Source of the DNA: Mustelus asterias
Taxonomy: Eukaryota
Assembly (NCBI RefSeq): GCF_964213995.1
Contig: NW_027590119.1
Location: 2,418,001-2,482,000, forward strand
Direction of reading: 5' to 3'
DNA length: 64,000 nt
The first letter of the stretch is position 1. Each line of letters opens with the position of its first letter. The notes below the pieces were generated by a model that was given only the letters and a program-made list of their open reading frames with translations, did no database searches and was not told the origin of the DNA. Of this stretch, positions 1,691-23,046 are shown piece by piece. Both the position numbers and the translations under genes were made by a program.

Positions 1691-2229
1691 GTAAATATCT
1701 AAAATCTGCCTCCTTCACCCAACTTCTCCCACTTCTCTGTCCTTGTCCTATAGAAGCCAGTTTCTTGTATTGACACAGATCAGGTTCCCTTCTTTGAAAG
1801 ACATTAGTGAACCAGTCAGATTTTTAAGACAATCCAGTTTTCGTGGTCACTTTTTCCTTTACCCCACGCACTCTCTCTCCCTCAGCTCTCATAGAAGCCA
1901 GAGACATGTGTAGACCCAGACTGGATGGGCAGATTCCTTCCCTGAAGGACATTAGTGAACCAGTTGGGTTTTTATGACAATCGATCAGTTTTCTTGGCCT
2001 CTTTTCCCCAGTGCCGGCCCCACAAATTACCAGATTCATTCAGCTCAATTTCACAACCTGCCTTTGTGTTTGTGTGGGTTCTCTCTCACTCCCTTTTGCC
2101 TGTTTCAAATCAATTTCACAGGGACTGGAGTGGGACAATTTGCAGTCCGGGAACTGAAAACAAACATCATATCAGGAGCTGACGGAGTCACCCAATTTAT
2201 CATAACCTGAATATCAGTGGATTTTGATC

Positions 2230-2913
2230 ATGGAAGGAAAAAGCACCGTTCACAGTGGAGAGACACCATACACGTGTTCTGTGTGTGGACGAGGTTTCAG
2301 CCGATCAACTGGCCTGTCAAAACATAAGTGCAGTCACTCCATAGAGAAACTGTGGAAATGTGTGGACTGTGGGAAGGAATTTAATTACCCATCCCAGCTG
2401 GAAACTCATCAGCGCAGTCACACTGGGGAGAGGCCGTTCACCTGCTCTGAGTGTGGGAAGGGATTCACTCTGTCATCCCACCTACTTACTCATCAACGAC
2501 TTCACACCGGGGAGAGACCTTTTAAATGCTCAGACTGTGGGAAATGTCATAAAAGTTCCTGGGAATTGATGTCCCATCAACATGTTCACACTGACGAGAG
2601 ACCATACAGATGCTGTCACTGTGGGACTGGGTTCAGGCAATCGTATAGCCGTACTGCACATCAGCGAATTCACACCGGGGAGAGGCCGTTCACCTGCTCT
2701 GAGTGTGGGAAGGGATTCACTCGGTCATCCCACCTGCTGAGACATCAACGTACTCACACTGGGGAGAGGCCATTCAACTGCTCCAAATGTGGGAAGGGAT
2801 TCAGACAGTCATCTGAACTGTTGACACACGAACGCATTCACACGGGGGAGAGGCCACGTAAGTGGATTCATTCAATCATCCCATTTGCTGATACATCAGC
2901 GAGTTCACAGTGA
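2230..2913 (+). pseudogene. Tandem C2H2 (Kruppel-type) zinc-finger gene exon: 7 in-frame fingers, then frameshifted and truncated
   Basis: Seven CxxC...HxxxH fingers with TGERP linkers. Splice acceptor ...aatttcacAG at 2120-2121 and ATG at 2230. After the last TGERP a deletion shifts frame. The out-of-frame remnant [31 protein letters not shown] continues to about 2980, where a CR1 LINE begins. Confidence 0.85.
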
Positions 2914-6368: not shown

Positions 6369-6377
6369 TCACTTGAT
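6369..6377 (-). CDS. IGHM: IgM TM2 exon (Ile-Lys-stop)
   Basis: Acceptor tctttcttttacAG followed by ATC AAG TGA. Intron from TM1 is 136 nt. Gives a cytoplasmic tail KIK. Confidence 0.85.
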   Translation of the reverse strand: MK

Positions 6378-6513: not shown

Positions 6514-6641
6514 CTTCACCAGAGTGACCGCAGTGCTGTAGAAAATGCTCAGGAAGAACAGGACAATGAATGTGGAAGCCGTTGTCCAGATGTTACTGTT
6601 ATCATCCTCATTGTCTTCAATCCAGATGCGGTCGGTTGAGT
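6514..6641 (-). CDS. IGHM: IgM TM1 exon
   Basis: 128-nt exon with AG/GT ends encoding (D)[42 protein letters not shown], which contains the conserved antigen-receptor transmembrane (CART) motif. Confidence 0.95.
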
Positions 6642-9832: not shown

Positions 9833-10224
9833 TCATTGACATGAATTAACGGTGTCCATCAGTGCAAGGGAAATGTTCACAAAACTGGGTTTACCGCTGG
9901 ATTTGTCAACTGTTCTGTTGATGATCTTCAAGGGGATGGCTTCATGTCCCACCACACAGGAGTAAGAAGCACCGCTGGACCATTCCTCTGCTGCAATGGA
10001 TAACAGGCTGTACATGAAGAAGGAGCTATTCCCGCTCTCCGCGACCACCTCGGTGTTCTTATAGTTCCCAGGATTCACCGGCTTGTCGTTGACGGTCCAC
10101 TTGACGAAGATCTCTCGAGGGGAGAAACGTCTCACTAAGCAGCTGAGGGAGACGAATCTCTGAGCGGAGACTTCTTCTGCCGAGGGCAGGAGGACAGAGA
10201 CGAACGGTTCCCGCGGATTTGGAT
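9833..10224 (-). CDS. IGHM: IgM CH4 plus secretory tailpiece
   Basis: (D)[42 protein letters not shown]...[43 protein letters not shown]. The tail has an NIS sequon and a penultimate Cys. Internal donor G|GTAAA at 9895/9894 is in phase with TM1. Confidence 0.97.
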
Positions 10225-10726: not shown

Positions 10727-11035
10727 CTGTTTCCTTGTGGATGGATTTTCTTAAAGGAGTCGGCAGATCCTGATGGCTCACCACGCAGTCAAACACAGCC
10801 GCACTCAGCCAGGCTTGTGTCGAGATGTTTAAGTTGCTGACCACGCTGTCAGGATCCGCTCCAGGCTTTTCGGCAATCTCTGATTTCAAATACTTCCTGT
10901 CTCGGATCCAGGACACGTTGACTCCATAAGGAGCATTAGAAATGATGCAGGTTAAGGTCACGGTCGCCTCCAGTAAGACCTGTTCTATTGGTGGTGGCTG
11001 TATCGTCACTGTGGTATCAGGGCACTGGGGAGGAT
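10727..11035 (-). CDS. IGHM: IgM CH3 exon
   Basis: 309 nt, phase 1/1, AG/GT ends. Encodes (D)[29 protein letters not shown]...W...[22 protein letters not shown]. Confidence 0.96.
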
Positions 11036-11955: not shown

Positions 11956-12267
11956 CCAGAGATCCGCTGATGTTCTGACTCTGGGTGAATCCTTGATGAG
12001 TGACCTGGCAGGTATAGACCGCTTTGCTGATCCATTCCTGAGCGGAGACTGTCAGCCGACTGCTGGCCGAGAAGTTCCCGTTCACTTCACAGGCGGGAGA
12101 GGTGACAATTCCTGAATCCATGGGTTGTCCATTCTTCAGCCACTTCACCGTCATTGACTTTGGCTGGAAATCGATGATTGAACAGACGATGGTTGCAAAT
12201 TTTCTGCTGGTGATTTCTTCACTGGAACTCACGGTGAGGATAACGGTTGCCGGGAGAACGGGTGAGC
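11956..12267 (-). CDS. IGHM: IgM CH2 exon
   Basis: 312 nt, phase 1/1. Encodes (C)[46 protein letters not shown]...[21 protein letters not shown]. Confidence 0.96.
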
Positions 12268-13238: not shown

Positions 13239-13538
13239 ATTGCATTCCAATGCTCTTGACTGAGTCGCGGTGTCGAACCTCACACTTGATTTTGCTGCAC
13301 TCTCCCTCTGACTGGGTGATGGTTAACTGGCTGCTCAAGGTGTAAGTTCCCTTTGCGTTTCTCACTGATGGATAATTCTTAAATCCAGTGTCGATCAGCT
13401 GCCCATTTTTCTTCCAAGTCAGTTTGGAGACATCTGGAGAGTAGTCCATCGCCAAACAGCCGTAGGTGATGGAGCCAGCGGAGTTGTGTTGCTGACAGGA
13501 AGAGACGAGGCTGTAGAGAGTGGGCGGAGACGGTGTCG
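13239..13538 (-). CDS. IGHM: IgM CH1 exon
   Basis: 300 nt, phase 1/1. Encodes (A)[45 protein letters not shown]...[17 protein letters not shown]. The early Cys at the expected light-chain-bonding position is retained. Confidence 0.96.
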
Positions 13539-14277: not shown

Positions 14278-14747
14278 AGAAGTTGTCTCTTCATTCATAT
14301 CAGCCACTCACCTGATGAAAGAGCTCCAAAAGTTCGCAATTCCAAATAAGCGTGTTGGACTTTAACCTGGTGTTGTGAGACTCCTTACTGTGCCCACCCC
14401 AACCTAACGCCGGCATCTCCACATTGTAATTTTTGGATATTGCCTGTGTTCAAACTGACTGATGCCCCTTCCTCTCTCCAACTCACTGCCTCTCACTCCA
14501 CAAAACGAAGATTAGTGACTTTCCTTCAGAAATACCTTCGGAATGAATACTTACTGAATGACCAGGAAACTGGAAATGTGATTACAAATTCAAAAAATTG
14601 CAACATTGACTAATTTAAGGGTCGTACATTAATAGCAAGAGTTGACCATTCGGACCCTGAAGTCTCCTCCATAGTTCACTGAGATTACAGATGATCTGAT
14701 TGTGGTGATAGCTCTATTTTGCACCTCCTCACTCCGCCCGTCGATCA

Positions 14748-15318
14748 CCCACTCTCTGCCCATTTTCCCTGGCTCTCTGCCCTTTCCCCTGGCTCTCTGC
14801 CATTCCCTGTGGCTCCTTTCCCCTTTCACCCGGCTCTCTGCACTTCCACCTGGCTCTCGACACTTCCCTCCAGCTCTGTGCCCTCTCCCCCGGCTCTCTG
14901 CCCTTTCCCTCAGCACCCTACCCTTTCCCCCGGCTCTCTGTCCTCTGTCCCTGCTCACTATTCTCTTTCCCCTTTCCCATGGCTCTCTGTCCTTTCCCCC
15001 GGCTCTCTGCCCTTCCCCCCTGACTCTCTGTCTTTCCCCCTGACTCTCTGCCCTTTCCCCAGGGCTCTTTTGCACTTTTCGTCGGCTCTCTGTCCTTTCC
15101 CCGCCCTCCTTGCCCTTTATCCTGGCTCTCTCCTCTTTCCCTGATCTCTCTGCCATTTCCTCCATCTCGCTGCCTTTTCTCCTGTTTCTCTGCCCTTTCA
15201 CCTGGCTCCCTGCCCTTTCCATTGGCGCTCTTTCCCATTTCTCCTGGCTCTCTGCCCTTTCTCCTGGCTCTCTGCCCTTTCCCCCTGCTCTCGGCCCTTT
15301 CCCCAGACTCTGTGCCCT
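14748..15318 (-). repeat. About 21-nt polypurine tandem repeat, G-rich on the IgM sense strand
   Basis: Plus-strand unit approximately CCCCGGCTCTCTGCCCTTTCC, roughly 25 degenerate copies. Confidence 0.9.
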
Positions 15319-15519
15319 CCCCCCCCCCCCCCGCCCCCAGCTCTCCGCCCTTTACCACGCCTCCTGTTCTCCCCGGCTCTTTGCCATTGTCCTTGGCCCT
15401 GAGCCCCCAGGGATTCCCTCCAGCTCTCCACATTCCCAGGGCAGCTCCCACATTTGAAGACCAAACTGCTGCTTGAGATCTTTCTTCTCTCTCATCGCAG
15501 ACCTCCACACACAGGTTTA

Positions 15520-16643
15520 GCGAGTGTGAGTGAGAGAATGTGAGTGCGTGAGGGTGAGTGATTGAAGGAGTGAAAGTGGATGAGTGATGGTGTGTGAGTG
15601 ATGGAAGGTGGGTAAGTGAGGGTGAGTGATTGAGTGTGAGTGAGTAAGTCTGGGTGAGGGTGAGAGAACGTGAGTAAATGAGGGTGTGTGAGAGAGGGTG
15701 GGTGAGTGAAGGTGGCTGAATGTGTGAGTGAAGGTGGGTGAGTGAGTGTCGGTAAGAGAGAATGAATGAATGAGGGTGAGCGAGTGAGGATGCGTGAAGG
15801 TTACTGAAGGTGGGTGAGTGAGAGCGAGTGAATGAGGGTGAGGAGTGAATGTGACTTAGTAAGTGAGGGTGAGAGAGTGAGTGAGTCAGGGTGTGTTATT
15901 GAGGGTGGTGTGAGAGTGTGTGAGGGAGAATAAATGCGGATGGGTGGATGAGTGAGGGTGAGTGAGTGAAGGTGTTTGAGTGAGGATGAGTGATTGAGGA
16001 TCTGTGAGTTAGGGTGGGTGACCTTGAGTGATGGTGAATATGTGAGGGTGTGTGAGTGAATGTAGGTGCGTGAGTCTCAGTGAGTTTGAATGGGTCAGGT
16101 GGCGTACGTGAGAGAGAGAGGGTGATTGAGCTTGAGTGTGTGGGGGTGCGTCTGGGTGAGTGAGGGTCGGTAAGTGGGGAGAGTGAGTGAGGGTGAGTGA
16201 GAGTGATTGAGACTGGATAAGTGAGGGAGGGTAAATGCGGTGAGTGAGTGAGAGTGATTGAGACTGGATGAGTGAAGGTGCGTAACTGGGGTGAGTGAGG
16301 GTGAGTGAGAGTGAGTGAGACTGGATAAGTGAGGGTGGGTAAGTAGGGTGAGTGAGTGAGAGTGAGTGAGACTGGGTGAGTGAGGGTGGGTTAGTGGGAT
16401 GAGTGAATGAAGGTGACTATGAGTGTTGGTGAGTGACTGAGGCTCTGAGTGAGTGACTGAGGGTTAGTGAGTGAGGTTGAGTGAGTGATAGCACGTGATT
16501 GTGGGTGGCTGAGTGACAGTGAGTGAATGGGGATGAGTAAGTGAGGATGTGTGAGGGTGAGAGAGTGTGAGTGAGTGCTGGTGAGTGAATGAGGGTGTGA
16601 GTGTGAGTGAATGAGGGTGAGTGAGTGAATGCGAGTGAGTAAG
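15520..16643. repeat. Degenerate (GTGA)n/(GAGGGTGAGT)n tract
   Basis: Seen directly. Confidence 0.9.
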
Positions 16644-16662
16644 TGGGGGGGGCGGGGGGATG

Positions 16663-16972
16663 GTGGCACGGTGGCACAGTGATTAGCGCTGCTGCCTCAG
16701 AGTTGGATTCCCGACTTGGGTCACTGTCTGTGTGGAGTTTGCAAGTTCCCCCCATGTCTATTTGGGTTTCATTCGGGTGCTCCTGTTTCCTCCCACAGTC
16801 CAAAGATGTGCGGGTTCGGTGGATTAGCCGTGCTAAATTGCGCCTTAGTGTCAGGGTGACTAGTTAGGGTAAATACATGTGGTTATGGGGATCGGGATTG
16901 CTGTTGGTGCAGACTCGATGGGCTGAATGGCCTCCTTCTGCACTGTCGGATCCTATGATTCTATTCTATGAT
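16663..16972 (+). mobile_element. tRNA-derived shark SINE (HE1-like) with a LINE-type tail
   Basis: A-box head ggcacggtggcacagtgattagc, core gtctgtgtggagtttgca, tail attctattctatgat. Related copies at about 26765-27060(-), 31670-31870, 34490-34746(-), 39480-39805, 45365-45650, 49890-50172(-), 50900-51175 and 54910-55185. Confidence 0.75.
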
Positions 16973-16994
16973 GTCAAGGACAGACACTCTGACG

Positions 16995-18260
16995 TATGTG
17001 AGATGGAAAGTGTGTGAAAGGGTGTTTGGGTGTGTGTGTGTGAGAGAGAGAGAGAGAGTGAATGTGTGGGAGGGTGCCTGTGTGTGATTGACTACGTTTG
17101 CACGTGTGTAAGACAGTGGGCTGTGCGTGCAAGAGGGGAGAGTGTGTGTGCGAGAAAGGGTGTGTGAGATAATGTGTGTGTGTGAGAGAGCATGTGTTTG
17201 AAGAGTTATTCTTTGTGTGTGATAGTGTGTCTCACCTTGAAAGTGTGTGTGTGGAGGGGCGGGGAGAATGTATGAGAGAGTACTTCTGTGTGTGATTGAG
17301 TGTGTGTTTATGTGAAAAGAAGTGTGTCTATATGAGATACAGGGTGTCTGTGAAAGAGAGTGCGTGTGCTTGAGAAGGAGGGTCTGTGTGTGGGAGAGAG
17401 TGTTGTGTTCATGTGAAAGACAGTGTGTGCGAGAGGGAGTGCCTATTTGAAAGCAAAATAGTAGGTTCATGAGTGTGTGAAAGTGTGCATGGGATTGCGT
17501 GTGAGTGAGAAAGATGTGTACAATGTGTGTGGGTGATAGAAGCAATATTTTTGAGTGTGTGTGTGTGTGTGTGAGCGTGTGTGTCTGTGACAGAGAGAAA
17601 GAGTTTTTGTGTGTGAGAGAGAGGCGTTGTGTGTGGTTTATGTGGGTGAGAGTGTGTCAGACGCATGAGTGCTTTTGCACGTGTGTGAGACAGTGGTCTG
17701 TGTGTGCAAGAGGAGAGAGTGTGCGTGAGAGAAAGGATATGTGATATCGCGAATGTGTGTGTGTGTGAGAGAGAGTGTGTGTTTGAAGAGATATTCTTTA
17801 TGTGTGTGAGAGTGTCTCTGTTCTTCAAAGTGTGTGTGTGCGTGTGTGGAGGGGCGGGGAGAGTGTGAGCGAGAAAAAGTGTGAAAATTAGACAGAGTGG
17901 ATGTGTGAGTGTGTGTGAGTGAAATAACGATTGAGAGAAAACGTGTCTGTGATAGGTGGAGTGTTTCAGAGAGATACATTGTGTATACATGTGTGTTCGT
18001 GTGTGAGAGACGGAGAGAACTGTGGGCGTGTGAGAGAGAGTCTTTGTGAGAGACAGTGTTTGAGAGCAAGATTGTGCGTATGTGAGATAATGTGTAAGGG
18101 AGTAAGCGTGTGAAAGAGAGAGAAATATGTGCCTGCGTGAGAGAATGCGTGTGGAAGTGTTCGTATGAGAGAGGGAGCATGTGAATGAGTGTGAGACGAA
18201 GTGAGAGTACGGGAATGTGGGAGGGATAGTGCATGTGTGTGTGTGCGTGTGTGTGTGTGT
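16995..18260. repeat. Mixed (GT)n/(GA)n low-complexity tract with an internal duplication
   Basis: Seen directly; about 17095-17270 resembles about 17672-17862. Confidence 0.85.
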
Positions 18261-18334
18261 TTCCTGGCCCCAACACAGTGACCACGCGCACAGAAACAGA
18301 ACAGACATAAACGGTGCAACAATCGAGTGCCCAG

Positions 18335-21300
18335 CAGATAGATCTGTTCAATCTGTCAATTTCATTCAAACTGTTGGATTCTAATTGATCAATGGCCAAC
18401 TTACAACAACAGAAAATTAATAACCTATTTTAAATTAAACTGATATTCATTTCAAAACTCCTTTCGACTGTTAATTATTCCTCTGTCTCACTTCTCGAAA
18501 GCTATGTAAAAATGTAATTTCGCCGAAAATGAGCAATCAAAAATAACAGATTCAGGACAGTTCAATGTCCCTAACAGAGATGCGGTGACACAGCAAGAAG
18601 TAACCAAATCAAGAAACATTTAGATTGAAAATCATTACCTGATTAGATCTAATTTCTTAATTAAATGTACTCAACAAATTAATCAAAGCAAAGCACTTTA
18701 TCGAGTGAGCACAGCTGAGTAAAGTAATGTTTTGTTTCTGAATACATTTCCGATACAATTGAATATTCTCTAAAACGGATTGTATTTTGCACGCCTGTAC
18801 AATATTCAAGGTAGTTTGTTTTGAATTAATCAGCAGCATTATTATATTTTAAGTTATTGTTAATTACTAGTTAGTTCTCCTGTCAGCTCATTTGTACTCT
18901 GTAATAAAATGGGTTTTCAATCATTCAAAATGTGCTTCTGCCTCCAACATTGTTAAATAATTAGGTTACAATTAAATCTTAGACAATGTTAAATATAATT
19001 TCAAATTACTGAACAGAAACATTCAGACATCTGTCATTCATTTACTTAAATCTAATCACATTGTAATATTTTACTTTTTCACTTTTACTACAAGTGTCTT
19101 ATTATAACCTGCAAAAGTGTTAAAATTGCATACTGCTGAATATGTATAGACTGTAACGGCCTGGCAGTTTGAAGTCAATAATACTGCTTCCAAGATTTAG
19201 TAATTTAGAACATCCATATAACTTAATTACTGAACACATTGTTTAATTAAAGAAGATCTGAATTAAACAGTGCAAACACAAAGAGGACAATTGATTCAAA
19301 TCCTCTGTAACACTAAAACATGATGCAGAATGTAAGTCCAGACTTTTTCTTCATTATAATATTTAATATGAATTAAACATAAGGTTCAGATAGAATCAAT
19401 TCTTCTATTCTGTCATTTATTCTTCCCATAATTCTATCCTGTGTTCAGCAGTAATGGGAGACATGATGTTATTATCAAGTGCAGAGATAAGATTATTTTT
19501 ATAGTATTTATAATAGTATAATATTTTTATTTAAATTAATCTTTTTGAATTTCAAGCATTAACTTGTCCATCTCTAGCCAGTTTCTGTTGACACTTTACT
19601 ACAATTCAAACACAATTATGTGAACAATTGCATGAGTGTCAGCGAATTCCACCTGTCAGAAAACTCTGTTCGCTCTGTCAAATTTATTCAAACTGTTTGA
19701 TTCTAATTGATCTAAGGTCAAATTACAACTGCAAAAAAGTCAATAAAAAATTTAAATTAACCTGATGTTCATTTCAAAACTCCCTTCGCCTTTTAACTAT
19801 CTCTCCCTGTCTGTCTCAAATCATGAAAACTGGGCAAAAATGTATTTTTTCTGAAAATGAGCACCTCAAATATAACAGATTCAGGGTAGTGTAATCTCCC
19901 TAACAGAGATACAGTGTCTCTGTAAGAATTGTAATTCATGATTTATTTTAATATGTAAGCATCAGTTAACTTGAATAAAAGTCCAAACATCTAATTATTT
20001 TATTTTTCCGAAACCTTTTTCCTTTATCCCTGCAAGAATTTTCAAACGCAGTTTTATTTTCATTTAGCCAGAAAACGTGTAACCGCTCAGTTTCACAGAG
20101 TTGAAACAATACAGAAACAATTGAGAAACACCAAACCATTTCACAAATTTTGAGATGAGATTAGTAATTAATTATCTCGGTATCCAATTACAAATTACTT
20201 GGAAGGAATAATCTGATTGCGACTGCACAGAAAGAAAATGTAATAATCGGATACATAAATTGCCAAAAAGCAACGTCTTATTCTGCAAAACTCGTATTCC
20301 AGTGAATGCGAACTTAATCTGGGATATAACGACTAATGCAAAGTATCTTGTTGAATTGAGCGCTGCTATGGAAACAGCACGTTATCATTGAAATAGTTTC
20401 TGGAATTATCACAAAATATTTCCAGCCCAGAAACTTTTCTGGTCATTTTAATTGAACAGAACTATTAGAGGTGATTAATGAATAATGATATTAACATAAA
20501 AAAATCTTTGGTGAATATGGAGTTATATTGCCGATCAATAATTGTTTGATTTATCTTAATTTCATGATCAAATTGGTTAATGAGAAGTTTGTGATTGCAG
20601 CAATGACTTAGTGTCCAAGTGAACTTTGTAAGTCATGATTTATTTTAATATTTAAACATTAGTTAAAATTTATAAAAATGTTGTGATATCTTGATTTCAT
20701 TTTTTTCCAAAACCTGCCTGTTTTCTACTACAAGGACTTTCAAACTCAGAGATTCTTTGCATTCAACCAGAAAACGTGTAACCGCTCAGTGCCGCCGAGT
20801 TTAAACAATGCAGAAACAATGCGGAAACACCAAATCACTTCGCAAATTTTAAACTATCATAGAATCTCCTGAACATAAACACTCCAAAGCACATCACTGA
20901 GGGAATTATTCCGCTTCATGAAGAAGCAGCTCAATTATTCATTCAACATAATAAAATGTAACATTGCAAGAAAATCTCAATATCGAATCCAGCAAAACAG
21001 CTCTTCACCAAATGTATGAATTATTAAACAAAACAGAAATCTGGAATAATAGCAATAGCATTGTGAAGAGATAGAATATATCCAACACATTAATATGGAA
21101 ACTTTACCACATTTTATTCATATTGGATCATATTTCAAACATATTTAAACATTTGGATGGTAAAAGCTGCAGCAATCACTGAGATTTAACATTGCAGGTT
21201 AACCAAATAGTGAATGCAGTGGCAAACTATATTCTGAACAAACTGCGTAAACTGTGATTTAGTTTAACCTGCAATTATCAATTATGATTTTCAAAAATGC

Positions 21301-22060: not shown

Positions 22061-22113
22061 TATAAAACAAAAGCTCAAGTAAAACAGTTACTAAATAATT
22101 GCATGGTTCTTAC

Positions 22114-22162
22114 CTGCAGTCACCGTCACCATGGTCCCTTGTCCCCAAGTAGTCAAAGTAGT
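22114..22162 (-). CDS. IGHJ: JH segment (49 nt; FR4 WGQGTMVTVTA) with a 1-nt insertion before the Trp codon
   Basis: ACTACTTTGACTAC-T-TGGGGACAAGGGACCATGGTGACGGTGACTGCAG followed by donor gtaaga. Confidence 0.95.
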
Positions 22163-22201
22163 CACAGTGTCACATTCGCTTGGCTGGATCATACAATAAC
22201 T
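22163..22201 (+). promoter_or_regulatory. JH 5' recombination signal sequence with 23-bp spacer
   Basis: Heptamer CACAGTG 22163-22169, spacer 22170-22192, nonamer ACAATAACT 22193-22201. Confidence 0.93.
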
Positions 22202-22527: not shown

Positions 22528-22555
22528 GGTTTTTGTATTGACAGTAACTGATGTG
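22528..22555 (-). promoter_or_regulatory. D 3' recombination signal sequence with 12-bp spacer
   Basis: Heptamer CACATCA 22555-22549, spacer GTTACTGTCAAT, perfect nonamer ACAAAAACC 22536-22528. Confidence 0.9.
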
Positions 22556-22868
22556 CCACCCCAGACTCTTGCACAGTAATAGATGGCGGTGTCTTCGGTC
22601 TTCAGCCTTGTCATCTCCAAAGAGAAGATATTGGTTGAAGTGTCTTTAGACGCAGTAAATCGATCCTTAATTGCTGGGGCGTAGCTGTTGCTGGATGAAG
22701 TACGGTAGTAAACCAGCCACTCCAGCCCCTGCCCGGGAACCTGTCGGATCCAGTACATGTAAGCGCTGCTAAGACTGAAGCCGCTGGTTTTACAGGTCAG
22801 TGTCAGGGAGCCTCCGGGACGCCCTGTCTCTGCCTCTGGCTGAGTCAACACAACCTGCGTCTGGACAC
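22556..22868 (-). CDS. IGHV: VH exon germline-joined to a D segment (VD)
   Basis: Open frame (G)[52 protein letters not shown]...[36 protein letters not shown]. There is no RSS after YYCAR; about 10 nt (TCTGGGGTGG) run directly into a 12-RSS. Confidence 0.95.
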
Positions 22869-23000: not shown

Positions 23001-23046
23001 CGGATAAGAAAGTCAGCAACAAACTGAGAGAAATCGCCGACCTCAT
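23001..23046 (-). CDS. IGHV: IgH leader exon
   Basis: ATG at 23046, encodes MRSAISLSLLLTFLS plus one G, donor gtgagt, 132-nt intron to the V exon. Confidence 0.93.

Follow-up and report, generated by a model that had tools for sequence, protein, structure and literature searches.

Elasmobranch IgM clusters that are partly joined in the germline, with VD-J or VDD-J configurations, have been described previously (PMC4279169; PMC5192425; PMC2193156). The cluster analysed here lies on the minus strand of a 64,000-nt stretch of the Mustelus asterias genome (hereafter, the window). As far as the parts of those reports drawn on here characterise VD-J and VDD-J clusters, it resembles them in carrying a single set of V, D, J, and C-mu, in having its V already fused to a D with both ends trimmed, and in leaving one RAG step to be completed. 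It departs from them in its JH: the same parts of the reports describe joins only, whereas the JH in the window has a shifted 5' frame. The responsible base, an additional T, is independent of the join, since it also occurs in an unjoined cluster elsewhere in the assembly (C173). Neither does the cluster correspond to IgM1gj, a fully joined VDJ without C-mu2 (PMC4279169, in the part drawn on), as it retains C-mu2 and an unjoined J.

The JH shares its RSS layout, J-Trp, WGQG motif, FR4, and splice phase with ordinary shark IgM JH segments (YFDYWGQGTMVTVT; nurse shark AAU04505.1, AAU04506.1, AAU04509.1). Unlike these, it measures 49 rather than 48 nt and encodes T-T-L-T-T instead of Y-F-D-Y at its germline 5' end. 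A parallel is offered by the choice of D-segment reading frame in V(D)J recombination, where imprecise junctions leave it open in which frame the germline bases next to the junction are read. The same imprecision leaves the frame negotiable in the +T JH, with the difference that here an indel in J is rescued and that FR4 forces the frame, the new residues being fixed and not one of three alternatives. No published description of a frameshift-recoded JH was found in a search that covered part of the horn and nurse shark IgH literature. The recombination mechanism involved is ordinary V(D)J biology, and the locus is a curiosity that calls for no new mechanism. We consider it likely that the one-base insertion before the Trp codon of this open IgM cluster is inherited and harmless, and that about one third of the joins would still be productive and end in ...(T-T-)L-T-T-W instead of ...Y-F-D-Y-W.

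The window carries one cartilaginous-fish IgM heavy-chain cluster (Table 1), with the organisation of an elasmobranch IgM cluster: V, D, and J lie within ~2 kb, and four C-mu exons, a secretory tail, and transmembrane exons come after them. All its exons have AG/GT borders and an open frame. Pfam recovered a V-set and four C1-set domains, and the top matches of the V in a protein search were shark VH at 70–81% identity. The cluster is partly joined, as its V has no RSS of its own and ends in a D2 remnant followed by a 12-RSS, while unjoined paralogues show V-23RSS, D1, and D2. Set against these paralogues, V is 2 nt and D2 4 nt shorter at the joint, a single base stands between them, and no D1 can be recognised. 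The identical joint was found at C71:12.52 Mb, a locus with different far flanks, which favours an inherited join over one made in a single lymphocyte; none of the contigs from public sequencing runs extended across the joint. The JH combines a consensus heptamer, a 23-nt spacer, and a nonamer with a J-Trp, a WGXG motif, a stop-free frame, and a phase-1 GT donor, J-Trp and W-G-X-G being the motif by which JH segments are recognised (PMC7555362). Its nonamer is identical, mismatches included, to that of most close relatives with a normal J.

Table 1. Features of the IgM heavy-chain cluster in the window (positions counted from the first nucleotide of the window).
Feature	Position	Strand	Remarks
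Leader exon (ATG at 23046)	23001..23046	-	Open, GT donor
VH exon with V-to-D2 coding joint, probably germline, ending C-A-R-V-W-G + 2 nt	22556..22868	-	Pfam V-set, E 7e-18
Joint inside VH exon	V to 22566; untemplated or D1-derived base 22565; D2 remnant 22564-22556	-	Paralogue comparison
D2 3' RSS, 12-nt spacer, variant heptamer CACATCA	22528..22555	-	Heptamer confined to the four +T clusters
JH RSS: heptamer 22163-22169 (consensus), 23-nt spacer, nonamer 22193-22201 (2 mismatches)	22163..22201	+	
JH, 49 nt, FR4 frame TTLTTWGQGTMVTVTA	22114..22162	-	GT donor at 22113 intact
C-mu1 exon	13239..13538	-	Open; Pfam C1-set
C-mu2 exon	11956..12267	-	Open; Pfam C1-set
C-mu3 exon	10727..11035	-	Open; Pfam C1-set
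C-mu4 and secretory tail ending ...DTVNSCQ-stop	9833..10224	-	Open; Pfam C1-set
Transmembrane exon 1	6514..6641	-	Open, AG/GT borders
Likely transmembrane exon 2 (I-K-stop)	6369..6377	-	Sequence reading

Three further elements were observed in the window. The J-C intron contains G-rich and GT/GA tandem arrays (14632-18430), a decayed second VH-like segment with an in-frame stop and 71% identity lies ~10 kb upstream of V (~33390-33140, minus strand), and an ORF for a C2H2 zinc-finger protein is located downstream of the cluster (2206-2910, plus strand).

The extra base is one of two T at 22147-22148 (minus strand), directly 5' of the G4 run of the Trp codon. The JH segments of five close paralogues are 48 nt long, read YFDYWGQGTMVTVTA, and align to the JH in the window with one gap; its FR4-frame reading, TTLTTWGQGTMVTVTA, i.e. 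TTLTT-WGQGTMVTVTA, is stop-free. This comparison confirmed what an earlier note on this DNA had stated, namely that the JH is 49 instead of 48 nt long and reads T-T-L-T-T without a stop. The G4 run beside the T has the same length in the +T and the normal forms, so that no change in homopolymer length is involved. With the extra T, the end of the heptamer and the 5' part of J form a perfect 9-nt tandem repeat (22147..22164, minus strand). Because the T completes this repeat, slippage on it is a plausible origin, and the T may have arisen once in this way.

The exact +T JH pattern occurs exactly four times in the 3.68-Gb assembly: in the window (C87:2440147), C71 (C71:12520668), C91 (C91:2457372), and C173 (C173:688897). 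The exact FR4 pattern gave 50 matches, including these four. A looser pattern (heptamer, gap, WGQG) gave 65 matches genome-wide, reduced to 63 by removing two that were evidently not Ig; the Trp codon is preceded by 14 nt in 57 of the 63 and by 15 nt in four (all with the same insertion), and the remaining two are D-J joins, with the reservation that all locus counts may include haplotype duplicates. The four +T copies differ in V sequence, in flanks, and in D layout: unjoined V-D1-D2-J in C173, D1-D2 joined in C91, and V-D2 joined in C87 and C71. Leader, V, and C-mu1-4 exons are open in all four clusters, and the TM1 exon was found in each. The one-base insertion was thus observed in four copies, together with open exons, intact splice sites, and a J RSS.

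The D2 heptamer CACATCA, ~400 nt from the T, was present at 4/4 +T loci and 0/40 normal-J loci (Fisher p 7e-6 for 4/0/0/40, a value inflated by relatedness and from a test picked after seeing the data, with 6/50 loci unscored). It has three mismatches to what we take to be the consensus heptamer, and CACAACA, the D2 heptamer of the nearest normal-J clusters, likewise has three.

In a tree of the J 3' intron (17 loci, +T site excluded), C87, C71, and C173 formed a 100/98 clade with C91 outside. A single clade of all four +T copies was rejected on this intron (p-AU 2.6e-5), with a p-AU of 0.107 on the D2-J spacer; a single origin of the T consequently requires exchange or loss. C71 and C91, possibly alleles, share 98.9–99.5% identity over ~41 kb upstream, C87 is ~96% identical to both over the same stretch, and the homology of C173 ends ~3.7 kb upstream of J, with unrelated sequence beyond. 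Judged by these comparisons, no fewer than three independent loci carry the T, because C71 and C91 may count as one while C87 and C173 stand apart.

Around J, three of the +T copies are only 0.1–0.4% apart. C91 shows 21 differences to the window in the first 500 intron bases, and differences within 80 nt of the T on both sides. Between C71 and the window no differences were found over 24046-22566 and four substitutions over 22052-13053, with six differing sites in the D2-J stretch, where C71 partly matches C91, and 96% identity in C-mu2. In outline, the ~11 kb from promoter to C-mu1 (window 24046-13053 against C71:12.51-12.52 Mb) are near-identical apart from a short divergent D2-J patch, and flanks and C-mu2 are several percent apart; the tract would reflect either gene conversion over a long distance or a chimera made in assembly. 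Exchange between clusters is suggested for the +T form by the mosaic nature of the copies, and duplication combined with patchy exchange is the simplest reading of its spread, by which the T would have come to occupy three or more loci. Possible alternatives are a chimeric assembly and recurrent slippage in C91. The +T allele may be useful as a marker of exchange between IgM clusters.

In shark IgM, trimming and the addition of N/P bases shape the junctions (PMC2435157), whereby the reading frame is fixed at joining. In the window, the one step left to RAG would connect J, flanked by a 23-RSS, with the V-D2 unit and its 12-RSS, and the FR4 frame would be selected by trimming and N addition. 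Joining was simulated in 200,000 draws with uniform, assumed trimming lengths (D trim 0-6, J trim 0-10) and N additions (0-8). In-frame and stop-free joins made up 31.5% with the +T J and 31.9% with the normal J. With the productive share unchanged and the rest of the cluster open, the proposal that the T recodes JH without inactivating it likely holds. Since V(D)J joining is imprecise and would reset the frame each time, the insertion would do no harm, and on balance it would add a further, nearly neutral type of JH.

A blunt join of the VD end in the window is out of frame and reaches a stop after nine residues, with the +T and the normal J alike. The TGA that had been predicted for a blunt VD-J join is therefore real, but the T is not its cause, since the normal JH also gives an out-of-frame join that stops at the same place. 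In simulated productive +T joins, Thr always preceded Trp (given the trim limit), Thr stood two before it in 93%, and Leu three before it in 70%. In the predicted products, Trp103 would be retained, as would a hydrophobic residue three positions before it (Leu for Phe); Asp101 and Tyr102 would be lost. It had been expected that F-D-Y would be lost unless trimming intervened, and this is supported: trimming would rarely remove the T or restore FDY, because the T adjoins the Trp codon, and all 13 nurse shark mu chains compared retain Tyr just before Trp. D2 and J have TGGGG in common and in frame; guided by this homology, a join could drop the whole 5' part of J and leave a CDR3 of three residues, presumably a rare event.

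How unusual such a CDR-H3 base would be was judged from the other JH segments of the assembly and from cartilaginous-fish heavy chains. A hand count of the 57 normal-length JH gave FDY in 20, MGY in 22, MDY in 7, FGY in 4, FDD in 2, LDY in 1, and FAS in 1. Asp101 is thus absent in 27 of them, and Tyr precedes Trp in 54. Among the 13 nurse shark mu chains, five lack Asp101 and two have Leu three before Trp. V-query protein searches returned 42 heavy chains for examination, of which 29 could be parsed and 13 had no parsable junction (the set includes one pattern mis-parse and five genome gene models). In none of the 29 was Thr found before the J-Trp, and in three of these chains or models it was preceded by Glu, Phe, or His. 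A PDB search with the J peptide and its flank returned generic WGQGT matches, with no TTW heavy-chain base in the best five alignments.

Residue 102 differs among human JH genes. The kinked H3 base of human Fabs involves a salt bridge between Asp101 and Arg94 and a cap provided by a hydrogen bond of Trp103, yet a single H3 sequence took both kinked and extended stems (PMC4968113). Of the Asp101-Arg94 pair that marks the canonical kinked H3 base, the +T cluster encodes Arg94 (C-A-R), and position 101 is Thr in 93% of the simulated productive joins. The earlier note had taken F-D-Y as the conserved H3 base and, given the fixed VD, had anticipated a very atypical paratope. The first view is not supported by the JH count, and the second was overstated: Asp101 is often absent, Leu is normal three before Trp, and the change of Tyr102 to Thr is the sole oddity. 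Nor would the paratope be fixed or nearly so, because the D2-J junction still diversifies somatically. As read from the germline, the +T clusters would have a distinct CDR3 base; a very atypical paratope is unsupported. The clusters provide a built-in test of the importance of Asp101 and Tyr102 in shark IgM, since TTW tags the rearrangements of all four, so that selection on them could be followed in any repertoire of the animal.

Taken over the four shark IgM clusters, the frameshift by which the 5' end of JH is recoded is real, and probably inherited and tolerated. A less likely alternative is that the T is real and that the clusters are in effect unused or selected against, either because CACATCA recombines poorly or because L-T-T-W chains pair or fold badly, making them pseudogenes in the making. 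The Tyr before Trp in nearly all normal JH and in every nurse shark chain suggests a constraint in line with this, and the variant heptamer accompanies the T in 4/4 clusters. The copies are also too young to show decay, and open exons in very recent duplicates, as three of them are, say little on function when judged from sequence. On the other hand, the CACAACA of the closest normal clusters is equally far from the consensus, other residues than Tyr do occur before Trp in parsed chains or models, and leader, V, and C exons are free of stops and frameshifts in 4/4 clusters. If the insertion is a natural frameshift that recombination would absorb, annotation should neither call such a JH a pseudogene nor correct it.

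It is improbable that the cluster represents a frameshift-born JH, expressed as functional IgM with Thr-Thr for Asp101-Tyr102 and spreading by germline gene conversion under positive selection, which would amount to a route to new J genes via junctional imprecision. The narrower proposal that the recoded JH is favoured, its Thr-rich CDR3 base being useful against some antigens and selection having spread it among clusters, appears very improbable. Four intact clusters with three D layouts, a stop-free shifted frame, and the crossing of the +T form between divergent backgrounds are consistent with it. However, the clusters are mosaic throughout, so that the spread of the T needs no selection, and a stop-free frame of five codons is common by chance. 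That the T was not seen in two of the organisms covered by public sequencing runs (organisms B and C) also speaks against it, weakly.

Six public runs, from three organisms (A, B, and C) and available as assembled Logan contigs, had cover at the JH; a seventh had none at the site. Every contig bridging the site was without the T. These contigs fail to confirm the T and do not refute it, because minority variants are lost from Logan contigs and, within its subfamily, the +T form would account for 4/14; the best-matching run, moreover, shares only 0.41 of words and may derive from another individual. The earlier note had named an assembly error beside the G4 run as the main alternative, which does not agree with an unchanged G4 run and with four copies that share both the T and the linked heptamer variant; a random or homopolymer error would not give such a pattern of copies and linkage. 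The least probable reading is therefore an assembly or polishing artefact, in which one wrong base or collapsed repeat was copied into several contigs: the bridging public contigs and the near-identity of the window and C71 over ~11 kb, as from a reused repeat path, are compatible with it, but the same T occurs at three or more loci that differ in V, D layout, and flanks, C91 differing from the window close to the T on both sides and C173 having another V and unjoined D segments, while seven close paralogues share the local context but not the T, the homopolymer length is unchanged, and the T is linked to a substitution ~400 nt away.

The survey of JH loci yielded several additional observations. 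Among the 50 loci, 32 are unjoined, eight have one join, eight have V within ~450 nt of J (as in the window), one is a VDJ, and for one no V was visible; the joints take various forms. The fully joined VDJ is located at C166:443 kb, and two D2-J joins, with a frame that opens with a stop codon, at C143:782 kb and C971:53 kb. The +T cluster at C91:2457.3-2458.2 kb has a V-DD-J layout in which one D carries the 5' RSS of D1 and the 3' RSS of D2. In C150, a sister cluster with a normal J, a 2-nt deletion frameshifts the end of C-mu2, and the stretch examined gave no match to TM1. At C71:13.54 Mb, the C-mu2 acceptor is unlike that of the other clusters at the aligned position, possibly reflecting a shifted or lost splice site. 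Finally, two loci (L060 and L067) have a JH that encodes YIAY behind a variant heptamer.
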